Source: a bacterium
GTDB lineage: Bacteria > UBP15 > UBA6099 > JBFMBQ01
Assembly: GCA_040752295.1 (NCBI GenBank)
Contig: JBFMFE010000322.1
Location: 1,682-65,681 of the forward strand
Direction of reading: 5' to 3'
DNA length: 64,000 nucleotides
This document shows, one piece after another, positions 9,654 to 57,215 of this stretch. The position numbers and the translations under genes are program-made. Every line of letters starts with the position of its first letter. Position 1 is the stretch's first letter. Below the pieces are notes generated by a model that was not told the DNA's origin, searched no databases, and saw only the letters and a program-made list of their open reading frames with translations.

Positions 9654-10853
9654 TCAGAGAACGTCGGAGAGCTTCACGCGGTAGAGTCTTCCTTCCGTGA
9701 CGATCCAGAGATTGCCGCTCCCCGCCGTAAAATCCCTGGATTTCATCAGGACGTCCGCCGCCTTTCCGCCTAATCTCTTTATTTCCCCTTTTTCGGGGTC
9801 GAGTACGATTGCCGTCGCGGACGACGCGGCTAAGAAATTCGTTCCCGCCGCAGCCGCCGCGTGAAAATCGCCCCGCAGACTGATGTCCTGTTTCGATGAA
9901 TAAGACTTCCACTTCCCGGTTCGTGTGTCGAGGACGCACACCCCCCCCTTCGTCTTCACCGTTTTCACGGGTATGAGTCCCGATTCGATGTCTTTCTGGA
10001 GCGGCGCCCTCGCTTTCTCGTCCGTCGCGTAGGTGAACCACCTGTTCTCCTTTTCCACGTAAACCTTGATCTCGTCCCTCGAAAGCTCCATTCTGTCGCC
10101 GAGGTATCCGGTCGTACCGCCGCTCGTCGCGATAAGGACGTGGGCGCCGGTCTTTTCGATCGCGTTGATTCTCACCCCGCACCCGTGGTCTCTGGGCAGG
10201 AAATACCGGTACTTCCCGCTCGCGGCGTCTATCTTCAGCAAGCCCGCGCTCACGCCGAGCCAGATGTTCCCGGCGTCCGCGAGCATCGCCGTTACGGGTT
10301 TTGTGTGGTTGTATCCGGTCCGTTTCAGCGTCGTGCGGTCGAACACGGAGACGCCCTCGCGGTCCGGTCCGCCTTCGCCGGTAACGTAAAGCCTTTTTCC
10401 CTCGACGGCGATCTTGTCGCCGCCTATGATGTTGAGGTCGTAGAGTTCTTTCCACTCCCCGGTGCGGGGCGTGAACCGGCACGTTCCTCCCTCGTCTCCG
10501 GTGCGGAACCATACGCCCTCCCCGTCCTCGGCAAGGGAGAGTACGTCGCCCGCGGGGCATCCCTCGAGGCTTGTGTCAGCCTCGAACGTGCGCCACCCGC
10601 CCGCGCCCCGCTCGAGCACGCTGACCGCGTCTCGGTGCCCCGCCCACACCGCTCCGGCGCCGGCGTATATCGCCGTCACCGGCTTCGGTATCCCCGCCGC
10701 GGGCAGTCTGACGTGTTCCACAACCGGTTCGGCTGCCCCGGGAGGCGCAGCCGCGGGAGAACCGGGTGAAGGCAGGGAGGCGGCGGCGACGGCGGCGAAC
10801 AGGAGTATGAGAGGGAGTCTTGCTCTCATCGGACCCATCGGGGATGCGCTCAT
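9654..10853 (-). CDS. secreted beta-propeller-like repeat protein (hypothetical)
   Basis: Signal peptide MRARLPLILLFAAVAAASLP. Repeated ~40-aa Gly/Trp-rich units (GVWFRTGDEGG, GNIWLGVSAG, GNLWIVTEG) resemble propeller blades. Possible starts at 10853, 10838 or 10829. Confidence 0.5.
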   Translation of the reverse strand: MSASPMGPMRARLPLILLFAAVAAASLPSPGSPAAAPPGAAEPVVEHVRLPAAGIPKPVTAIYAGAGAVWAGHRDAVSVLERGAGGWRTFEADTSLEGCPAGDVLSLAEDGEGVWFRTGDEGGTCRFTPRTGEWKELYDLNIIGGDKIAVEGKRLYVTGEGGPDREGVSVFDRTTLKRTGYNHTKPVTAMLADAGNIWLGVSAGLLKIDAASGKYRYFLPRDHGCGVRINAIEKTGAHVLIATSGGTTGYLGDRMELSRDEIKVYVEKENRWFTYATDEKARAPLQKDIESGLIPVKTVKTKGGVCVLDTRTGKWKSYSSKQDISLRGDFHAAAAAGTNFLAASSATAIVLDPEKGEIKRLGGKAADVLMKSRDFTAGSGNLWIVTEGRLYRVKLSDVL

Positions 10854-21030: not shown

Positions 21031-22101
21031 ATGAAGAAACTGTTTGCGCCGGTTTTACTGACGCTGGCGTTTTCCAGCGGCGTTTTCGCCGCGAAGGTAG
21101 CCATGGAAGAGTTGAACGGCTCGGACCTCGGCATGGGCGTCGGCGCGAGGGCGATAGGGATGGGGGGCGCGTTCGCCGCGCTTGCGGACGACGCCTCCGC
21201 TATGTACTGGAACCCCGCGGGGCTGACGCGGCTCGACACGAACGAGACGATGCTGATGGCGGACCAGGACCCCATTCGTTACACCTTCAAGGCGATGGTG
21301 TTCCGTCCGAAGGAGTGGAGGAGAAAGAAGTCCAGTCCCGCTTTCGGCGCGGCGCGCACCAACAGGCTCAAGTACAGGGGTGAGGGCGACTGGAGAAACG
21401 ACACCTTCGCGCAGCATCTCATAGACCTGAGCATGATTGACGTGGACCTCGACGAGCCGAAGTGGGCGGGGACCGGCGGCATTGACTCGCGGACGTGGGA
21501 CTCCAGATTTTCTTTCGCCTGGACCTTCCCGTCAATGGAGCGTCTTTCGATGGGCGTGAGCTACGTTGATTTCAAGTGCGTGACCACCTTTTACGCCGGA
21601 TGGCTCCAGAACGCGTGCCAGGTCGTGGCATACGACGCGTGGGACCTCGGGCTGCTGTACCGCGCCGGCGGGAAGATGCAGTATGGATTGACGCACCGTA
21701 ACCTCTTCGAACAGACCAAGCCGAAGTATCTCACGGTCGCCGCCGCTCTTTTCAAGAACGAGGACACCACTTTCACGCTCGACGTCGAGCGCATTTTCGG
21801 CAACTACAGCAGTAACCTGCGGAAGGTCCGGTTTCTGATGGTTCGGGCGGGGATGGAGCGCCGTCTCGACCAGCGCTGGGCGCTGCGCGCCGGGCTTATC
21901 TTTCCCCTTCAGGCGCATACGTCCACGCTCGGCGACCTCAAGGCGAACCTCCCCAGTCCCGGGTTCGGCGGCGCGTTCGGCGTCGGATACACGTACAAAA
22001 CCACCTCGCTGGACCTCGCCGTGTTCGGCGACCCCGGAAGGAGCTACGTCGAGCATGACGCAAGGATAAATTACTCGCTCACCCTGACGCAGAGGATGTG
22101 A
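21031..22101 (+). CDS. FadL/OmpP1/TodX-family outer-membrane beta-barrel transport protein (PorV-like)
   Basis: Signal peptide MKKLFAPVLLTLAFSSGVFA. The N-terminal motif LNGSDLGMGVGARAIGMGGAFAALADDASAMYWNPAGL matches the FadL hatch motif (LNE.S.SGLGRA..GE.A.ADDAS....NPA). Beta-strand-rich alternating pattern throughout. The true start is the ATG at 21031, not the ORF start at 20860. Confidence 0.65.
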   Translation: MKKLFAPVLLTLAFSSGVFAAKVAMEELNGSDLGMGVGARAIGMGGAFAALADDASAMYWNPAGLTRLDTNETMLMADQDPIRYTFKAMVFRPKEWRRKKSSPAFGAARTNRLKYRGEGDWRNDTFAQHLIDLSMIDVDLDEPKWAGTGGIDSRTWDSRFSFAWTFPSMERLSMGVSYVDFKCVTTFYAGWLQNACQVVAYDAWDLGLLYRAGGKMQYGLTHRNLFEQTKPKYLTVAAALFKNEDTTFTLDVERIFGNYSSNLRKVRFLMVRAGMERRLDQRWALRAGLIFPLQAHTSTLGDLKANLPSPGFGGAFGVGYTYKTTSLDLAVFGDPGRSYVEHDARINYSLTLTQRM

Positions 22102-34793: not shown

Positions 34794-35723
34794 TCAACCC
34801 ATTTCGATGCGAATGTACTCGATGGTCCTCCTCAGCCCCTCCTCGAGCGGGACCGCCGGGCGCCAGCCGAGCGTCGCTCGCGCTTTCGAGACGTCCGGCT
34901 GCCTGCATTTGGGGTCGTCATCGGGAAGCGGCTGACGTTCAAGCCTGCTCCTTGAACCGGTCAGCCCGATTATCATTTCCGCAAGCTCAAGGATGGTGTG
35001 CTCGTCCGGGTTGCCGAGGTTTACCGGTTCCGCGAGATCGCTGTCGAGCAGTCTCATGATCCCGTCCACCATGTCGTCTATGTAGCAGAAGCTCCGTGTC
35101 TGCGCGCCGGAGCCGAATACGGGGATCGGTTCGCCGCGGATGGCTCTGGTGATGAAGGTTGGTATCGCCCTCCCGTCGTCGAGCCTCATGCGGGGACCGT
35201 ACGTGTTGAAAATCCGCGCGATCCGCGTGCTGACGCCGTGCACCTTGTGGTACGCCGTCGTCATCGCCTCCGCGAACCGCTTGGCCTCGTCGTAAACACC
35301 CCGCGGACCCACGGGATTCACGTTGCCCCGGTAACTCTCTCTCTGTGGATGCTCGAGGGGATCGCCGTACACCTCGGATGTGGAGGCGAGAAGGAACTTC
35401 GACCCTTTCGCCCTCGCAAGCCCGAGCGCCTTGTGCGTTCCCAGCGCTCCCACCTTCAACGTCTGAATGGGAAGTTTTATGTAATCTATCGGACTTGCGG
35501 GACTCGCGAAATGCAGGATCGCGTCAACCCCGCCTGCCACCGATATGAAATTGGTGATGTCGTACTGAATCATGGTGAACCGCGCGCCCAGCAGGTGCGC
35601 CACGTTATCCGCGCGCCCGGTGATGAGGTTGTCAAGGCACACCACCTCGTGCCCCTCCTTCAACAGCCGCTCGCAGAGGTGGGACCCGATGAACCCCGCT
35701 CCGCCGGTGACGACCACTCTCAT
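34794..35723 (-). CDS. UDP-glucuronate decarboxylase (UDP-xylose synthase)
   Basis: [36 protein letters not shown] and [14 protein letters not shown]...RQPDVSKA are UXS/ArnA-decarboxylase family blocks. Confidence 0.8.
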
Positions 35724-36367
35724 TGCCTTGCTCTCCGCGCGCCGGGCGGACGTGCTCTACCGCGCCCGCGCCTTGAGATGTACAGGCGGCCGAAATAGAC
35801 GGCGGCTATCGCCGCCACCACGGCGATCGTGCCCAGCTTGAACCCGGCGCTCTCGAAAAATTCCTCGACCGCCCTGAGTTCCATATCCTTCGAAAAATGG
35901 GAAACGAGACTGCCGATGATCGCGTACCTCGCGCCGCGCGCGAGAAGCGACACCGCCACGAACCGCCGGAAGTGTATGACGCACACGCCGCCGGCGATTG
36001 TGAAAACCTTGTAGGGAATCGGCGTGAACGCGGCGATCCCTATCGCCCACGCGTCGTACTTCTGAAGGAGCTGCTCCACGCGTTCCACCTTGCGCCTCTC
36101 GAACATCCTCAGGAGAAGTGGGCGCCCCCCCTTGACGCCTATGAAATAGCCGAACATGGCGCCGAGCACCGACGCCGCCGTCCCCACGCCGGCGTACGAC
36201 ATCGCCTCCGGGAATGTTCTTTTGAAGCACAGGGGTATCAGGAGCGTCTCGACGGGCAGGAGGAAGAACGACGCCTCCATGAACGAAAGCGCGAAGAGCG
36301 CGGCGAACCCCGCGCCGCCGCTGATCATCGCCAGGTTCAGCCAGAACTTTGCCGTGAGGATTTTCAT
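35720..36367 (-). CDS. DedA/SNARE-associated (VTT-domain) membrane protein
   Basis: [11 protein letters not shown]...[48 protein letters not shown] matches the DedA family core. It overlaps the UXS start by 4 nt. Confidence 0.75.
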
Positions 36368-36590
36368 ACGGAATCCGAGCCTTTAATACTATGTTGCGCG
36401 ATCCCGAATGTCAATTTCCCCGCCGCGCGGAAACGGGCGCGGTTCCCCCGCCGGCGCGGCTGTGAGGAACCCGAACATGCGGGTGTAATCTACTGTCGCG
36501 TCAACCATAAAGTGACGTATTCGAGCCTGTTATATAATTGTAGGGCGGGGTCGCCGTACCCCGCCGAACAGAACAGCAGGGCGTGATAAA

Positions 36591-36688
36591 TCGAATGTCG
36601 AATATCGAACAAGAAACCGCGGAATATCGAAGGAAAATGCAGGAAAAACTTCATCATTCGACATTCCTTGTTCGTTATTCGATATTCG
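36591..36688. repeat. palindromic repeat element copy A (TCGAATGTCGAATATCGAACAAG ... CTTGTTCGTTATTCGATATTCG arms)
   Basis: Imperfect inverted repeat of about 98 bp. The inner arm AAACCGCGGAATATCGAAGG pairs with CATTCGACATTCC. It is highly similar to the element at 55834..55928. It sits in the divergent dedA / GT-C promoter region. Confidence 0.5.
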
Positions 36689-36727
36689 TTTTTCAGCGCG
36701 ACATATGACCGTTGACATGACACTACG

Positions 36728-38941
36728 GTGAAACAGGGGTTTCACAGGGCGATGACGGACAGCCGGATTTACGCAGTGGTTGTTTTTGCGCTTGCGAACG
36801 CCTCGGCGGGATACGGAGCGCACAGGGTGGCGCGCCGCGTTTTTCCCGACTCGGCGGGCGCCGCCCCGCTTGCCGTTTTCGCCGTCGTGTACTGCGCGAC
36901 GATAGTAGTTCTCGAAGCGGCTCTCGGTTTCGCCGGCGCGCTCGCGCCGGAATCCGTTCTTGTCTGCGCCGCGCTCGCTGCCGTCGTCATCCATGCCGCG
37001 ACGGGGCGCGCCGGAAAGCGCACCCCGCCGCAAACGCCGGGACCGCCGCCCTCCGTCCGCGCGGGTGTTCCGGCTCAATCCACACTTCGAGGCATGATCC
37101 CGTTTCCGCCCTCGGGCGCCGCCCACTCGTGCGTCGCCGCCGCGCTGGCAGCCCTGTTCGCCCTCATCGCCGCGTGGGCGTTCGCCGCCCCGCCGCCCGC
37201 CGGCGGCGACGCCTTCATCTATCACCTCTTTTTCCCGGCGGCGTGGCTCCACAGCGGGAAAATCGAGATAGTGCCGCTGCCTTTCGGGGCGCAGGCTGCC
37301 TCGTACTATCCCCTCAATACGGAACTGCTCTTCCTCTGGCTGATGCTCCCGTTTCACGAGGACTTCCTCACCAACGCACTCCAGGTCCCGTTCCTGGTTC
37401 TCTGCGGCGCGCTGGTTTTCGAACTCGCCCGCAGCATGTGCGCGGAACGCCGGGATGCGCCGCTCATCGGCGCGTACGTCGCCGTTCTCATACCCGCCGC
37501 CGTGCAGCAGGCGGTCGTCGCCCGCGTGGACGTCGTGTTCTCAGCGTGGTTCCTCGCTGCTGTTCTCTTCCTTCTCGAATGGCGACGCTCCCGTGAATTG
37601 AGGCGCCTGTGCCTCGCAGGAATCGCCTTCGGACTCTTCCTCGGGACAAAGTCCGTCGCCGTGCTCTACGGGACGCTGCCCGCCGCGGTTTTCCTGTGGT
37701 CGCTCCGCGGGGCGGGTCTGAGAAGATCGCTTCAATACGTCCTGCTGTTCGGCGTTCTGTCCATCGCCTCGGGCGGTTTCTGGTACGTGCGCAACTGGGT
37801 CGTCACCGGCAATCCCTTCTACCCGCTCCGCGTCGGGGTCGCCGGGTTCACCGTATTCTCCGGCGCCTACGGGAGGGACGCGATGAAAATCTTTCACGTA
37901 ACCGACCCCGGCGAGATGCTCCGGATTCTCGATTTCTTTCTCGGGTACCCGCTCGCCGTTTTTCTTGCGGGGTGCGGCGCGATCTCCCTCGTCCTCGTGC
38001 TGCGGAGGGGACTTGAGGCGTCCCGCCGGGTCATTCCCGTTCTGCTGCTTCCCCCCGCGCTCGCCGCGCTCTTCTGGTACGTTAACCCTCACAACAATCT
38101 TACGAACGGCAGGTTCCTGTTCCCCGCGTTCTTTCTGTCCTGCGTTTATCCGTGCGTTGCGCTCGATGGTCTCGGAAGAAAGGGACGGGGCGTTCTGTGG
38201 GCGTTCGCCGCCGCAGCCGTTGCCGCGAGCACACTTCGCCATGATCACGCGCTGAGGATAGCGTGGGAGGTTATGACGACGGTCGCCGGGGCGAACCAGG
38301 GGTTGTTGGGTCCGGCGAGGGGAGCGGTGTCGCTCACGGCGGCGTCGGTCGCGGTTTTTTTCGTTTTTCTGTGGGCGAGGGCGGCATTCCCTCTCAAGTC
38401 CGCCTGCGCCGTTCTTGCCGGCGCTCTTCTTGTCCCTGCGCTTTTGCTTTCGTGGGATTATCACGCGCGGTACAAGTACCGGTGGTACACGGCGTTTCCC
38501 GTGGGCAGGGCGTGGGGGTTGATTGACGCGAACGCCGGCGCCGGCGCGCGAATCGCACACTGCGGGAACGAGCGCGCTTACGGCCTTTTCGGAACGGGAC
38601 TCCGCAACCGCGTCTTCTACGCGAACGTGGATGAACACGCCGACTGGAATTTTCACGATTATCACCTCAGGGTTCCCGGAAACCTCGAACCGGGCGCGGA
38701 CACGGAGCGTCCGCAGTTCCACAGGGAGCGCGCGGATTTCACTGCCTGGCTGAGAAACCTGCGCGCCGGAGGAGCGGACTACCTGTTCTGCACCACGCTC
38801 GATCCGATCGCGCGCCGGTTCATGAGCCATTCTCCCGAAGGGTTCACGATCGAGGCGCAATGGGCTTCGGCGCGTCCGGACGTGTTCAGGGAAGTCTTCA
38901 GAAGCGAGGAAGTCCGGATTTTCCGCGTTCTCGAGAAGTGA
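36728..38941 (+). CDS. polytopic membrane protein, putative GT-C-type glycosyltransferase (ArnT/PMT-like)
   Basis: 737 aa with more than 12 hydrophobic segments, an HEDF acidic loop motif after TM1-2, and a large C-terminal soluble domain. The family assignment is tentative. Confidence 0.45.
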   Translation: MKQGFHRAMTDSRIYAVVVFALANASAGYGAHRVARRVFPDSAGAAPLAVFAVVYCATIVVLEAALGFAGALAPESVLVCAALAAVVIHAATGRAGKRTPPQTPGPPPSVRAGVPAQSTLRGMIPFPPSGAAHSCVAAALAALFALIAAWAFAAPPPAGGDAFIYHLFFPAAWLHSGKIEIVPLPFGAQAASYYPLNTELLFLWLMLPFHEDFLTNALQVPFLVLCGALVFELARSMCAERRDAPLIGAYVAVLIPAAVQQAVVARVDVVFSAWFLAAVLFLLEWRRSRELRRLCLAGIAFGLFLGTKSVAVLYGTLPAAVFLWSLRGAGLRRSLQYVLLFGVLSIASGGFWYVRNWVVTGNPFYPLRVGVAGFTVFSGAYGRDAMKIFHVTDPGEMLRILDFFLGYPLAVFLAGCGAISLVLVLRRGLEASRRVIPVLLLPPALAALFWYVNPHNNLTNGRFLFPAFFLSCVYPCVALDGLGRKGRGVLWAFAAAAVAASTLRHDHALRIAWEVMTTVAGANQGLLGPARGAVSLTAASVAVFFVFLWARAAFPLKSACAVLAGALLVPALLLSWDYHARYKYRWYTAFPVGRAWGLIDANAGAGARIAHCGNERAYGLFGTGLRNRVFYANVDEHADWNFHDYHLRVPGNLEPGADTERPQFHRERADFTAWLRNLRAGGADYLFCTTLDPIARRFMSHSPEGFTIEAQWASARPDVFREVFRSEEVRIFRVLEK

Positions 38942-54259: not shown

Positions 54260-55657
54260 TCACCGGGCGCTTCCGCGGGTTTCCGGCGGGGCGTTTTTAA
54301 CGTGGGAATGCCACTGCGGCTTTCGGGGCGCGTCCGTCCCGGCGCCGGGGGCGCTCCCCGTCCGCTGCGGGTTTTTCCGCACGATCACCCTGTTTATCCT
54401 GCGCTTGTTCATGCTCTCGACGGTGAAAGTCATGTCTTTGAACACGACGCTTTCCCCCGGTTTGGGGACCTTTCCGAGCGTCGTGAATATGAAGCCGCCG
54501 AGGGTGTCGAAATCTTCGCTCTCGGGAAGGCGCGATTCGAGTACGTCGTTGAGTTCGGAGACGGGAATCCGTGCGTTGACGTGGAGCGTGTTTTCGTCAA
54601 TCCAGCGGTACAGGGGTTCCTCGGTGTCGTATTCGTCCCTGATTTCGCCCACGATTTCTTCGAGCAGGTCTTCGAGTGTGACAAGCCCGCTCGTGACACC
54701 GTGTTCGTCCACGACGATCGCCATGTGGACGCGCCTCTTCTGGAATTTCCTGAGAAGGTCGTCAATCTTTTTCGTTTCGGGCACGAAGTAAGGCTCGCGC
54801 ATGACGGCGTCCACCGACTCGTCCGCTCTGCCCTCGATCAGGGCGCGTATGAGGTCTTTGGAGTTGACGATCCCCACTATGTTCTCGAGCGTGCCGCTGT
54901 AGATGGGGACCCTCGAGTGCCCCACGTTTTCGACGAACGAAGCCATCTTCCCGATGGTGATTTCCCTGGGCGCGCACGCCATGTCGGGTCTGGGCACCAT
55001 GACCTCTTTCACGTAGGTGTCGCCGAACTCGAATATGCTGTGGATCATCTCCCGCTCGTCCTTCTCGATCACGCCCTCCTCTTCGCCGGTGGTTACCATG
55101 CCGAGGATTTCCGCCTCCGTGACGAACGGTCCCTCGCGCGCGGGCTTCCCGCCGAACAGCCTGATGATCCGGTTGCTGGCTGTCATCATGATCCACGTGA
55201 AGGGGGTTATCAGCCGGTCCACGAGCACGAGGGGTCTGATCGCCGCCATGGAGTACCGCTCCGGGTTGTGCACGGCGAGTATCTTCGGGATGATCTCCCC
55301 GAACGTGATGAACACCACCGCCACCGTCATGATGCTTATGGTCGGCTCCACCCACCCGGGAGGGCGCAGGTCGTGCGCGGAAACGACTGAATGGACGATC
55401 TTCGTCATGACCCACTCGGCGCTGATCGCGACGAAGTTGATGCCGATCAGCATCGTGGTGAGCAGCTTGTTGGGGTTGTCCAGCCAGAGCTTAATCGCGC
55501 CCTCGCGCCGGTGGTCCTTCCTCGCGATCTCCTTGAGCCTGTGGCGGCTCATCGCCACGAGCGCCGTCTCGACCGAGGAAAAGAACGCGCCGCTCAGAAA
55601 CAGGCACACCAGTATTACGACGAGGTAAAAAGGAATCGTTTCCAAACCTGTGATCAA
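54260..55657 (-). CDS. HlyC/CorC-family transporter (DUF21/CNNM membrane domain + CBS pair + CorC_HlyC domain)
   Basis: N-terminal four-TM DUF21 with SSVETALVAMSRHRL. CBS pair (VMVPRPDM...; VPIYSGTLENIVGIVNSKDL; MAIVVDEHGVTSGLVTLEDLLEEIVGEI). C-terminal transporter-associated domain. Confidence 0.85.
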   Translation of the reverse strand: MITGLETIPFYLVVILVCLFLSGAFFSSVETALVAMSRHRLKEIARKDHRREGAIKLWLDNPNKLLTTMLIGINFVAISAEWVMTKIVHSVVSAHDLRPPGWVEPTISIMTVAVVFITFGEIIPKILAVHNPERYSMAAIRPLVLVDRLITPFTWIMMTASNRIIRLFGGKPAREGPFVTEAEILGMVTTGEEEGVIEKDEREMIHSIFEFGDTYVKEVMVPRPDMACAPREITIGKMASFVENVGHSRVPIYSGTLENIVGIVNSKDLIRALIEGRADESVDAVMREPYFVPETKKIDDLLRKFQKRRVHMAIVVDEHGVTSGLVTLEDLLEEIVGEIRDEYDTEEPLYRWIDENTLHVNARIPVSELNDVLESRLPESEDFDTLGGFIFTTLGKVPKPGESVVFKDMTFTVESMNKRRINRVIVRKNPQRTGSAPGAGTDAPRKPQWHSHVKNAPPETRGSAR

Positions 55658-55833
55658 CAGTGAATATAACCCATCCCCCGCGGGAATGTCAAATCGGGGC
55701 GGTCCGGCGCGGCGGGCGGCGCGGAACCTGTCTCGCTGCTTCGGCGCTTTACCGGCAGCGGTCTTTCCCGCCGCCCTTCAGGTCAGTCCCCTGTAAGCGT
55801 TGACTTTAAGAGCCATACCGATATATTGCAAAA

Positions 55834-55928
55834 ACGAATGTCGAATAACGAATTTCGAATTATGAAGTCCTCCTTCGTCTCCGTTGTCCTTCGACATTCT
55901 GCGGTTCCTTGTTCGATATTCGATGTTC
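55834..55928. repeat. palindromic repeat element copy B (ACGAATGTCGAATAACGAA ... CTTCGACATTCTGCGGTTCC TTGTTCGATATTCGATGTTC)
   Basis: It shares the CGAATGTCGAATA(T/A)CGAA arm, the CCGCGGAAT(A/G)TCGAAGG inner arm (present here in inverted orientation) and the CTTGTTCG(A/T)TATTCGAT arm with copy A at 36591..36688. It sits upstream of the corC-to-dapA-like operon. Confidence 0.5.
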
Positions 55929-55949
55929 TGTTAAGTTAACGCTTATGGG

Positions 55950-57215
55950 TCAGTCCCCGAATTTCTCTTTGACCGCCCTGAACGACGCGTCCGCTGCTTC
56001 AAGTGTGATCTCCACGTCTTTTTCGGTGTGCGCCGTGGAGACGAACCAGTTGTGGTGCGGGTGGACGAAAATCCCGCGCCTGTTCATTTCCGCGCAGAAC
56101 GCCTGGTTGCGGAACAGGTCGTTGTCGTTCGTGAACCTCGCGTACGGCATGGTGGGGTTTCCCGAGAGGGCGAACGTCAGCCCGCGCTCCTTCGCCAGTC
56201 CTTCAAGCCCTTCCCACAGGAGCTTTCCGATGCGGTACATCGTCTCGACGCCGTCGTTCTCCTTCAGTTCCTTTATGGTCGCCATTGACGCCGCCATCGG
56301 GACGGAGCTGAACCAGTAGCTCCCGGTGGCGAACACCTTCGACGCCGCGTTTTTGAACTCTTTTCTCCCGAGGCAGGCGGAGAGCGGGTAGCCGTTGGCG
56401 AGCGCCTTGCAGTGCACCGAGAGGTCGGGGCGGAACCTGAAGAGTTCCTGCGAACCCTGCAGGTGGAGGCGGTAGCACGTGCGCACGTCGTCGAGTATCA
56501 GCACGATCCCCTTGCGGTTGCACACCGCCTGGACTTCCGTCCAGAACCCCGTCTGCGGCAGCACGCTGTCGCTCCAGTTGGGAAAATGGTACGGCGTCAT
56601 GATCGCGCCCGCGATCTGTCCTTCGTGTTCGTCCACCAGTTTTTTGAACGTCACGATGTCGTTCCACTTGAATGTGAGGATGTTCTCGCGGTCGCCGGGG
56701 ACGAGTCCGGCGTGTCCGGGCGTGCACCATGCGTGCGCGCCGTGGTACGTCCCCTCGACCATGATTATCTTCCGCCTGCCCGTGTGCGCCCGCGCGACCT
56801 GAAGCGCCCAGGTGGTCATGTCGGAACCGTTTTTCGCGAACAGCGCCCAGTCCGCGAACGGGATCAGCTCCACGAGGAACTCAGCAAGTTCCACCATGAT
56901 CCCGCCCGGGACGCTGGCGCAGTCGCCGAGCTTCCTCTGTTTTTCCGCCGCCTCCTCGACGCGCGGGTTGTTGTATCCCACCACCATGGGTCCGTACGCG
57001 CACAACCAGTCTATGAACTCGTTTCCGTCCACGTCGCGGAATCGCGCGCCCTGCGCGCTCGCTGCGTAGTACGGGGTCGCTCCCGGCGTCCTGATGATCG
57101 GCGACAGGTGCCCGTAGATTCCCCCGGGAATGACCCGCGCGGCTCTCTCGAAAAGAGCCATGGATTTATCGAACGCGCACTTTCCGCCGCCGCCTCTTTC
57201 TTCTCCGTCGCTCAT
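55950..57215 (-). CDS. class-III (PLP-dependent) aminotransferase, glutamate-1-semialdehyde aminomutase-like
   Basis: FERAARVIPGG..., GTYHGAHAW and the lysine context DLSVHCKALANGYPLSA parallel the HemL/AT-III active-site region. Confidence 0.8.
   Translation of the reverse strand: MSDGEERGGGGKCAFDKSMALFERAARVIPGGIYGHLSPIIRTPGATPYYAASAQGARFRDVDGNEFIDWLCAYGPMVVGYNNPRVEEAAEKQRKLGDCASVPGGIMVELAEFLVELIPFADWALFAKNGSDMTTWALQVARAHTGRRKIIMVEGTYHGAHAWCTPGHAGLVPGDRENILTFKWNDIVTFKKLVDEHEGQIAGAIMTPYHFPNWSDSVLPQTGFWTEVQAVCNRKGIVLILDDVRTCYRLHLQGSQELFRFRPDLSVHCKALANGYPLSACLGRKEFKNAASKVFATGSYWFSSVPMAASMATIKELKENDGVETMYRIGKLLWEGLEGLAKERGLTFALSGNPTMPYARFTNDNDLFRNQAFCAEMNRRGIFVHPHHNWFVSTAHTEKDVEITLEAADASFRAVKEKFGD

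Follow-up and report, generated by a model that had tools for sequence, protein, structure and literature searches.

Here, we describe two copies of a palindromic repeat of about 100 bp, hereafter A and B, in a 64-kb window (the whole stretch analysed, positions 1,682 to 65,681 of contig JBFMFE010000322.1) from a bacterium of the lineage UBP15. Both lie where an earlier note on this DNA had placed them, A between a DedA/VTT-domain gene and the gene for a polytopic membrane protein, and B between genes for a class-III aminotransferase and a CNNM/CorC transporter. According to our analysis, A and B very probably descend from a widespread palindromic element as miniatures that have lost its gene; in its normal form, the element has a gene for a four-helix-bundle protein between arms built of 7-nt units. 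The features of the two copies are the following, the strand being that of the sense of the lost gene.

36588 to 36693, plus strand: copy A, a heptad-armed palindrome without an open reading frame (ORF), defined by its inverted repeat, its fold and its alignment with the ends of full-length elements
36593 to 36635, plus strand: 5′ arm of A, units GAATGTC GAATATC GAACAA GAAACCGCG GAATATC GAAGGAA, from unit parsing and alignment to intact elements
36611 to 36616, plus strand: degraded ribosome-binding site of A, AAGAAA (AAGGAA in intact elements), from alignment
36624 to 36626, plus strand: start-codon remnant of A, ATA (ATG in intact elements), read against loci L181 and L146
36648 to 36688, plus strand: 3′ arm of A, ACTTCATCATTCGACATTCCTTGTTCGTTATTCGATATTCG, the reverse complement of a GAA-N4 array, from the inverted repeat, the units and alignment
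36654 to 36656, plus strand: stop-codon remnant of A, TCA (TGA/TAA in intact elements), inside ACTTCATCATTCG, from alignment
36689 to 36693, plus strand: T5 run right behind the hairpin of A, read from the sequence, with no call by the terminator consensus scan
55830 to 55930, minus strand: copy B, the same element in the opposite orientation, from collinearity with the plus strand of A, inverted repeats and alignment with full-length ends
55886 to 55928, minus strand: 5′ arm of B, GAACATC GAATATC GAACAAG GAACCGCA GAATGTC GAAGGAC, with the ribosome-binding site AAGGAA intact, from units and alignment
55895 to 55897, minus strand: ATG kept in B (ATG TCG AAG GAC, M S K D), from sequence and alignment
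55860 to 55862, minus strand: TAA stop codon kept in B, within ACTTCATAATTCGAAATTC and in a frame different from that of the ATG, from sequence and alignment
55835 to 55868, minus strand: 3′ arm of B, ACTTCATAATTCGAAATTCGTTATTCGACATTCG, from the inverted repeat, the units and alignment
55830 to 55834, minus strand: T5 run right behind the hairpin of B, read from the sequence
55781 to 55791 and 55948 to 55958: 11-nt perfect direct repeat GGTCAGTCCCC bracketing B, from a repeat search
55794 to 55806 and 55933 to 55945: 13-nt inverted repeat TAAGCGTTGACTT/AAGTTAACGCTTA just inside the GGTCAGTCCCC repeats, from a repeat search

Copy A is a long imperfect inverted repeat with 29-nt arms (36588-36616 and 36664-36692) that are 86% complementary and include a perfect inner pair, GAATGTCGAAT/ATTCGACATTC; copy B is built in the same way, with arms at 55836-55852 and 55912-55928. 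Each copy folds far better than its shuffles, with −38.4 kcal/mol (z −6.1) and −39.7 kcal/mol (z −5.7) for the plus and minus strands of A, respectively, and −29.1 kcal/mol (z −4.1) and −23.9 kcal/mol (z −1.9) for those of B. The plus strand of A is collinear with the minus strand of B over ~100 nt, at 79% column identity and including a 23-nt block, TCGAATATCGAACAAG(A/G)AACCGC, in which the single difference is A/G, whereas the alignment of the two plus strands reaches 73% and requires large gaps. Thus, the internal arm that had appeared to be inverted between the copies is an artefact of comparing two plus strands: B is the same element reversed. In the window, CGAATGTCGAATA (at most 2 mismatches) occurs 7 times against 1.45 expected and TCGAATNTCGAA (at most 1 mismatch) 8 times against 2.33 expected, all of these matches falling inside A or B. 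Additional short cores had been placed at 36396 and 61166; they actually lie at about 36404 and 61168 and are unremarkable, given that CGAATGT occurs 5 times in the window with 9.3 occurrences expected.

Searches of genomes and metagenomes revealed that the arms recur across bacteria. The structural pattern TCGAATNTCGAA-N50-80-TTCGANATTCG, for which ~8 chance matches are expected in 596 Gb by our arithmetic, was found at at least 118 genome loci in about ten phyla, those among the matches listed being Acidobacteriota, Desulfobacterota, Bacteroidota, Planctomycetota, Verrucomicrobiota, Methylomirabilota, Nitrospirota, Nitrospinota, Gemmatimonadota and others. Several genomes contain multiple copies each, and many matches lie at contig ends, which indicates that the hairpins break metagenome assemblies. 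The 26-nt arm common to A and B, GAACAAGRAACCGCRGAATNTCGAAG, with a chance expectation far below 1 match, is present at at least 120 metagenome loci, and the 5′ arm of B fits this pattern. Analysis of 244 arms showed that they are arrays of units starting with GAA (GAA-N4), 87% of the units being exactly 7 nt long and the modal arm consisting of 6 units; on its minus strand, A itself reads GAAAAAC GAATATC GAATAAC GAACAAG GAATGTC GAATGAT GAAGTTT. GAACAAG and GAACCGCA, two units not required by the pattern, are recurrent across phyla. Copies inside one genome have the arms in common and sometimes also the centre, in either orientation, with unrelated flanks. An origin from phages or plasmids was rejected, given that blastn of A yielded no match in 72,556 plasmids or 50,697 phages and that IMG/VR contains only 2 pattern matches.

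The identity of the parent element emerges from loci in which the A/B-type arm runs on into coding sequence (...AACAAGGAACCGCAGA ATG TCG AAG G...). Loci L146 and L181 contain intact 126-aa ORFs that begin in the arm, and a third intact gene copy is located elsewhere in locus L172. The 126-aa ORFs match PF05635, '23S rRNA-intervening sequence protein' (E 4e-14 and 3e-15), TIGR02436, 'four helix bundle protein' (85 bits, the cut-off being 24), and PDB 2RLD (1e-16). The stop codon lies in the 3′ arm, ...AAA ACT TCA TGA/TAA TTCGAAATTCCTTGTTCGATATTCGATATTC, which is also written ...ACT TCA TGA/TAA TTCGAAATTCC..., and full-length copies with the identical arrangement are found on long contigs, between unrelated genes, in L245, L248 and L252. 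When the 451-nt element of L181 is folded, all 33 of the 33 pairs formed by its first 60 nt, that is, by the 5′ arm, are with the 3′ end, covering AAGGAA and the AU of AUG. Other loci form a decay series with truncated or frameshifted N-terminal remnants, such as MSKEEKFDLEERLVDFAVRIIK and MSKESKIFGLEDRLID, and among the matches listed, the arm continues into an intact ORF in 2 of 123 occurrences. The protein subfamily comprises at least 7,977 clusters (90% identity) at E≤1e-5, the best 120 of which are all about 80% identical or more and mostly come from short contigs.

Alignment of A (plus strand) and B (minus strand) with the joined ends of the full-length elements of L181, L245, L248, L252 and L146 gave two matches, the first of which leads from the outer units through the ribosome-binding site to the start region, and the second from the last codons and the stop codon into the 3′ arm. 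This end-to-end alignment identifies A and B as ORF-less miniatures. In A, the remnant consists of 10 in-frame codons, ATA TCG AAG GAA AAT GCA GGA AAA ACT TCA. In B, AAGGAA is located 10 nt ahead of the ATG, likewise in the full-length copies, and the remnant ORF shows no homology past its first three codons. The aligned sequences themselves thus reveal both how the element is built and that A and B derive from it, and one of the three readings offered by the earlier note, a small family of non-autonomous mobile or palindromic elements resembling miniature inverted-repeat transposable elements (MITEs) or repetitive extragenic palindromes (REPs), is essentially right, with the parent now specified.

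The family is diverse in what its copies contain. In many metagenome copies (L140, L141, L144, L150, L159, L171 and others), a ~40-nt insert, GTCCTTCGGACTCCCCACCCTGCGGGCGGGTCCCCAGTTT, is nested in the 3′ arm between units CGATATT and CGATATTC, and TGACTTTAGATCACGTCTTTAGCGTGA is found at a similar place in other metagenome copies, the loci concerned also including L142, L154, L161 and L219; both are small hairpin-forming repeats placed inside heptad arrays and appear to us reminiscent of the 'small dispersed repeats' of Nostoc. A subfamily, mostly from metagenome-assembled genomes of Desulfobacterota (L007, L010, L011, L013, L051, L074, L110 and L115; L129, L147, L213, L224, L226, L237 and L240), has a different conserved centre of ~50 nt, ...GGAATGTATTCTATCTATTTTAAAAAGATTGAGCGAAGCGA..., that is dissimilar to the four-helix-bundle gene and may be either another type of cargo or the product of a different deletion. 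At 18 metagenome loci (e.g., L138, L144, L159, L171, L208 and L236), the heptad arm is preceded by an extra, non-coding left extension of ~30 nt, ACTATCAGCTATCAAGTCTTTGAGAATATG, so that, in some lineages, the repeated unit exceeds the palindrome; the possibility that the left flank ACTATCAGCTATCA..., common to 18 metagenome copies, is the end of a multi-copy gene was rejected, this flank being non-coding. The loops of L068, L069 and L080 contain arrays of other 7-nt units (GGAATTT/GGAATCT, GTATTTC and CGCATCC), and mixed heptamer arrays thus co-occur in single elements. The length polymorphism downstream of L252, L253 and L254 turned out to reflect unrelated insertions near tRNA genes.

The association between the gene and period-7 flanks extends to distant members of the protein family. 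With the protein of L181, 'four helix bundle protein' genes with 24-43% identity were detected in 29 plasmid records, 14 of which were examined for flanking arrays. All 14 genes examined, from Nostoc, Planktothrix, Dolichospermum, Aulosira, Gloeocapsa, Euhalothece, Pseudanabaena, Anabaena, Treponema, Chlorohelix, Bernardetia and Chondrinema, each lie between two arrays of a heptamer specific to the lineage, and the best autocorrelation lag is 7 in 12 of the 14 upstream and in all 14 downstream flanks. Examples include (AATTCAA)4 upstream with (TTTTGAA)4 downstream, CCCCAAT/CGTAAAT units, GGTCGGA units, GTAATTC upstream with TTACGAA downstream, CAATTCG upstream with AATTGCG downstream, and CAGTGAG/CAGTTAC upstream with TCACTGG x12 downstream. 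In the clear cases, the two flanks form inverted arrays (5 of the first 6 examined and, by eye, L262, L263, L266, L267 and L268), and the main arrays of Treponema L258 are direct. As a base rate, one Nostoc plasmid contains 7 arrays per 50 kb, 2 of which are the flanks of its four-helix-bundle gene. Even proteins that are 74-78% identical can bear different heptamers, indicating that it is the period, not the sequence, that is conserved.

Solo arrays were also observed. The Nostoc flagelliforme plasmid L269 contains three of them, at 9934-9984, 21301-21337 and 21617-21660 (GTAATTC x3, TAACTGA-like and GCGAATT x4), with units that match the arms of elements in Dolichospermum L262, Euhalothece L266 and Nostoc L268, and these may be footprints of lost elements. 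The plasmid four-helix-bundle genes lie in line between unrelated genes, often within defence loci (L256, L260, L263, L264 and L265), the neighbour pairs being drmD/pglX, helicase/N6-methylase, DUF1156/HEPN, cas2/cas1 and the adaptor and permease of a resistance-nodulation-division (RND) efflux system. Such genes in cas loci have earlier been taken for possible cas-associated functions (PMC3936711). Where four-helix-bundle genes are found in cas, bacteriophage exclusion (BREX), DISARM, restriction-modification and efflux operons, they probably represent insertions of such elements and do not belong to these systems.

The relationship between hairpin and gene could, in principle, be the reverse: the hairpin would be the primary entity, REP-like and spread by a host or trans-acting system, the gene would be a cargo captured in some of the loops, and A and B would never have contained it. 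Such a scenario gains from the fact that, among the loci with A/B arms, miniatures far exceed intact genes (the two continuations into an intact ORF and the third gene in L172), that other loop contents exist, e.g., the conserved interior of the Desulfobacterota copies, and that closely similar proteins bear different heptamers. However, the ribosome-binding site, the ATG and the MSK codons are part of one arm, whereas the last codons and the stop codon are part of the other, and both sets are kept in A and B; the truncated N-terminal remnants form a graded series; and, with each of the 14 distant genes having its own period-7 arms, repeated independent capture is hard to accept. We therefore consider the primacy of the hairpin improbable and favour the derivation of A and B from gene-bearing elements.

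Several observations nevertheless weigh against this derivation or limit its reach. The deletion-derivative relationship is seen in alignments, but the only gene of the parent encodes a four-helix-bundle protein without known transposase activity, and 860 kb of loci contain no transposase-like ORF between or beside the arms. Among 111 members, there is a weak excess of flank-to-flank repeats without a fixed length or position, but no consistent target-site duplication, and it is copy number, distribution and the unrelatedness of the flanks alone that point to mobility. In a broad genome scan, 7 of 122 heptad hairpins keep start-like and stop-like remnants in order, so that the link to the gene is established only for the A/B subfamily and for the 14 plasmid genes and cannot be generalised to all heptad hairpins. 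Neither tblastn nor a hidden Markov model of 16 family members (E≤10) detected a four-helix-bundle gene in the 64-kb window, and the window contains nothing that could mobilise the copies, if indeed the protein does so at all. In 54 kb sampled from relatives of the source organism, whose proteins are 64% identical, arrays of this kind are absent. Finally, the statistics on genomic context reported below rest on crude, home-made ORF picks.

The surroundings of B are of interest in this respect. The 11-nt GGTCAGTCCCC is the longest flank-to-flank direct repeat of the 111 family members, and its right-hand copy includes the stop codon of the aminotransferase gene. Together with the inverted repeat just inside, it may represent the target duplication and the ends of a 156-bp insertion that consists of B and 28 extra bases, although these repeats may or may not belong to the element proper. 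The flanks of A contain nothing comparable.

The genes and signals around the two copies, the signals being matches to consensus sequences, are as follows.

35720 to 36367, minus strand: DedA/VTT-domain gene (Pfam), divergent from A
36533: TATAAT-like box, upstream of the next hairpin
36539 to 36570: G+C-rich hairpin TGTAGGGCGGGGT...ACCCCGCCGAACA, just upstream of A, without a T-run
36658 to 36686, plus strand: sigma-70-like TCGACA-17-GATATT in the 3′ arm of A, directed outward to the membrane-protein gene, a consensus match only
36728 to 38941, plus strand: gene for a 737-aa polytopic membrane protein, downstream of A, with a possible ATG start at 36753
54260 to 55657, minus strand: CNNM/CorC transporter gene (Pfam), downstream of B
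55692 to 55663, minus strand: strong sigma-70-like TTGACA-18-TATATT (11/12), between B and the corC ORF
55800 to 55827, plus strand: strong sigma-70-like TTGACT-16-TATATT, reading into B antisense, its −35 box overlapping the left inverted repeat
55950 to 57215, minus strand: class-III aminotransferase gene (Pfam PF00202), its product 100% identical to protein P0001 of an NCBI metagenome-assembled genome and its stop codon 20 nt upstream of B and in the same orientation

Copy A thus occupies a divergent intergenic region, ~35-60 nt ahead of the membrane-protein gene. Of the two neighbours named by the earlier note, dedA is borne out by Pfam, whereas the supposedly GT-C-like protein on the other side (36728-38941) has no Pfam match at E≤0.001. 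The aminotransferase gene, B and the CNNM/CorC gene are all on the minus strand, with B ~175 nt before the CNNM/CorC start, so that the description of both copies as promoter-proximal is apt for A but not for B, which follows the aminotransferase stop codon. The promoter-like TTGACA-18-TATATT site directly abuts the corC ORF, which makes the annotated TTG start at 55657 doubtful. The nearest homologues of the window aminotransferase are 61-67% identical, one of them coming from Phycisphaerae, and the sampled relatives L119-L121 have only the SCP2-aminotransferase pair in common with the window. In the orientation in which they are collinear, A on the plus and B on the minus strand, each copy is co-directional with its downstream gene and ends in T5.

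These positions bring up the possibility of an RNA element selected by the host, i.e., a terminator, mRNA stabiliser, attenuator or small RNA, without a tie to mobile elements. Besides the strong folds and the T5 run that follows both copies in the sense orientation, the location of B just past a stop codon is compatible with this possibility, as are the contexts of the family members, with a median distance of 39 nt from the stop codon to the element and with more convergent than divergent contexts (21 versus 9). However, at the gathering score, the only Rfam match among 18 family loci is an unrelated tRNA, and Rfam 15 has no match in the 64-kb window, rRNA included; at E≤10, there is only generic microRNA-hairpin and snoRNA noise. 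In contrast to intrinsic terminators, the stem is A+T-rich and about 40 bp long, and the consensus scan calls neither A nor B. Nor do the T-runs follow the orientation of the upstream gene (17 of 66 versus 19 of 66), and among the 62-106 family members used for strand tests, the sense and antisense folding energies are equal (30 versus 31 elements, Wilcoxon p=0.81) and, within elements, neither strand is enriched in G·U pairs (p about 0.15). With no strand preference in any of these three respects, the palindrome behaves as a symmetric feature of the DNA rather than as an RNA selected on one strand. Moreover, A, in its divergent region, has no gene upstream whose transcript it could terminate, and a terminator requires neither a 26-nt sequence that is conserved between phyla nor the start and stop codons of a gene inside it. 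Riboswitches, attenuators and small RNAs were rejected on the Rfam results and the null strand tests, and with them the structured small RNA that the earlier note had entertained; overall, we give a host-selected RNA element little credence.

The remaining reading of that note, a shared operator in which tandem TCGAAT half-sites would place the membrane-protein gene and the corC operon under one regulator, fares worse still. Both copies are upstream of a gene in the same relative orientation, and some ribbon-helix-helix repressors bind arrays of 7-bp units, direct and inverted. However, identical arms are found beside unrelated genes in hundreds of unrelated genomes from many phyla, the 175 nt from B to the start of corC include a strong promoter-like site separate from B, and nothing connects the two downstream genes, so that we regard an operator as very unlikely. 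Coincidental low-complexity similarity, to which the palindrome TTCGAA within the unit might contribute by inflating direct and inverted matches, is effectively refuted by the collinearity of A and B at 79% over about 100 nt, the confinement of the motif matches to two sites and the recurrence of the 26-mer at no fewer than 120 metagenome loci. The refuting condition named by the earlier note, an absence of further copies from the genome, is superseded by the broad spread of the element in other genomes.

Taken together, these findings give the following picture of the element. A full-length copy consists of a 5′ arm of GAA-N4 units, mostly 7 nt long, that includes the ribosome-binding site AAGGAA and the ATG; a centre with the ~126-aa four-helix-bundle gene (PF05635/TIGR02436, the S23p family, homologous to Avd of diversity-generating retroelements); and a 3′ arm that is the reverse complement of the 5′ arm and contains the stop codon. 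In A and B, nearly the whole gene has been deleted, the two arms remaining as a hairpin-forming palindrome of ~100 bp. The element appears to be selfish, without a recognisable transposase, and presumably lacks a promoter of its own, riding on host transcription; family members are intergenic (tandem 47, convergent 21, divergent 9) and usually lie just past a stop codon, and a modest bias towards a co-oriented upstream gene (62 cases versus 37 opposed, p about 0.01 by our normal approximation) makes it probable that the element depends on read-through from the host. Once transcribed, the arms would form an interrupted double-stranded RNA stem of ~40 bp in which the ribosome-binding site and the start codon are buried, so that the gene would remain untranslated; as with the stems of rRNA intervening sequences (IVS), RNase III is likely to cut this stem. 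The copies in the window are probably inert relics with side effects: B, a hairpin with U5 that follows the aminotransferase stop codon, may terminate or process transcripts before corC, and A may provide the membrane-protein gene with an outward promoter-like sequence or a leader hairpin.

Among known systems, the closest parallels are with S23p-type IVS. The IVS in the 23S rRNA of Coxiella burnetii has been described as a selfish element of 428 nt whose 28-bp terminal stem is cut by RNase III and whose loop contains an S23p ORF; between the ribosome-binding site and the start codon of this ORF, which is decaying, lie two to three tandem GACAGAT heptamers, their number being variable (PMC4990558). 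Similar IVS ORFs are present in Leptospira, Brucella and Xanthomonas, and according to one old proposal, the IVS ORF encodes a mobility factor (PMC4990558). A and B likewise have terminal inverted repeats that form a long stem, with an inner stem as well, and their full-length relatives have the PF05635 ORF in the loop, a ribosome-binding site and tandem heptamers of variable number just before the start codon, and ORF decay. Short ORF-less IVS occur in Salmonella, Yersinia and Campylobacter and parallel the miniatures A and B. Unlike IVS, A and B lie between protein-coding genes rather than in helix 9, 25 or 45 of 23S rRNA, contain start and stop regions but no ORF, and are built of GAA-N4 rather than GACAGAT; also, excision by RNase III has been demonstrated for IVS and is only predicted, by analogy, for A and B. 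The element is best filed as an intergenic, ORF-less variant of the S23p-type IVS element.

Resemblance to other dispersed repeats is partial. A and B share with MITEs the size (~100 bp), the non-coding nature, the terminal inverted repeats, the multi-copy state (2 in 64 kb), the intergenic location and the origin by internal deletion of a longer coding element, but their parent encodes a four-helix-bundle protein and no recognisable transposase, there is no target-site duplication of fixed length, and their arms are arrays of 7-nt units where MITEs have unique terminal repeats. With REPs and bacterial interspersed mosaic elements, they have in common that they are dispersed extragenic palindromes, located after stop codons and within operons, that could affect mRNA ends; they differ in having no GTAG-type head and no REP-associated tyrosine (RAYT) transposase nearby, in being much longer (about 100 nt) and heptad-built, and in having a coding parent.

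Tandem heptamer repeats of cyanobacteria, Beggiatoaceae (TAACTGA) and Bacteroidetes are known but unexplained and have been suspected of horizontal spread (PMC4679880). Like the arms described here, these short tandemly repeated repetitive (STRR), TAACTGA and Bacteroidetes heptamers form intergenic arrays of 7-nt units with a lineage-specific sequence; unlike the arms, STRR and TAACTGA arrays have been described as direct repeats that mostly precede start codons. In the literature searched, we found no link between STRR or TAACTGA arrays and four-helix-bundle genes. The CCCCAAT units that flank the Planktothrix four-helix-bundle gene correspond to the STRR1 heptamer, and the Euhalothece gene is flanked by TAACTGG/TCACTGG units. 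The last comparison concerns Avd, a pentameric four-helix-bundle ring that binds nucleic acid. The PF05635 fold family is similar to Avd of diversity-generating retroelements, and the two are regarded as homologous (PMC10053308). The fold is thus common to both, but no reverse transcriptase, template repeat or variable repeat adjoins the elements examined. The literature searched, coverage of which was incomplete so that a prior report is possible, contains no description of GAAT-heptad hairpins, of an intergenic cross-phylum family or of miniatures, nor, within the same incomplete coverage, of any association of four-helix-bundle genes with heptamer arms other than that in the Coxiella IVS.

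The main interest of these results lies in the general association of an uncharacterised protein family with period-7 repeat arrays. For the S23p/four-helix-bundle family, to our knowledge, a function is known only for Avd in diversity-generating retroelements, and we know of no mobility mechanism for rRNA IVS, which have been called selfish for more than 30 years. On a practical level, hairpins of this kind could wrongly pass for regulatory RNAs or operators. The general architecture exposed here, with period-7 arms, mostly inverted, that embrace a gene and have its translation signals within them, makes it a testable hypothesis that the protein binds or acts on period-7 arrays. As a tentative extension, which we consider conceivable but doubtful, S23p/Avd-like proteins and period-7 arrays would form one functional unit across bacteria, in which the ring protein recognises or helps generate the arrays, so that elements without a transposase can spread. 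If this is true, STRR/TAACTGA heptamer arrays, short ORF-less rRNA IVS and the stray four-helix-bundle genes in defence and other operons would all be footprints or miniatures of one kind of element, and the three puzzles of the S23p family, the rRNA IVS and the tandem heptamers may be one.

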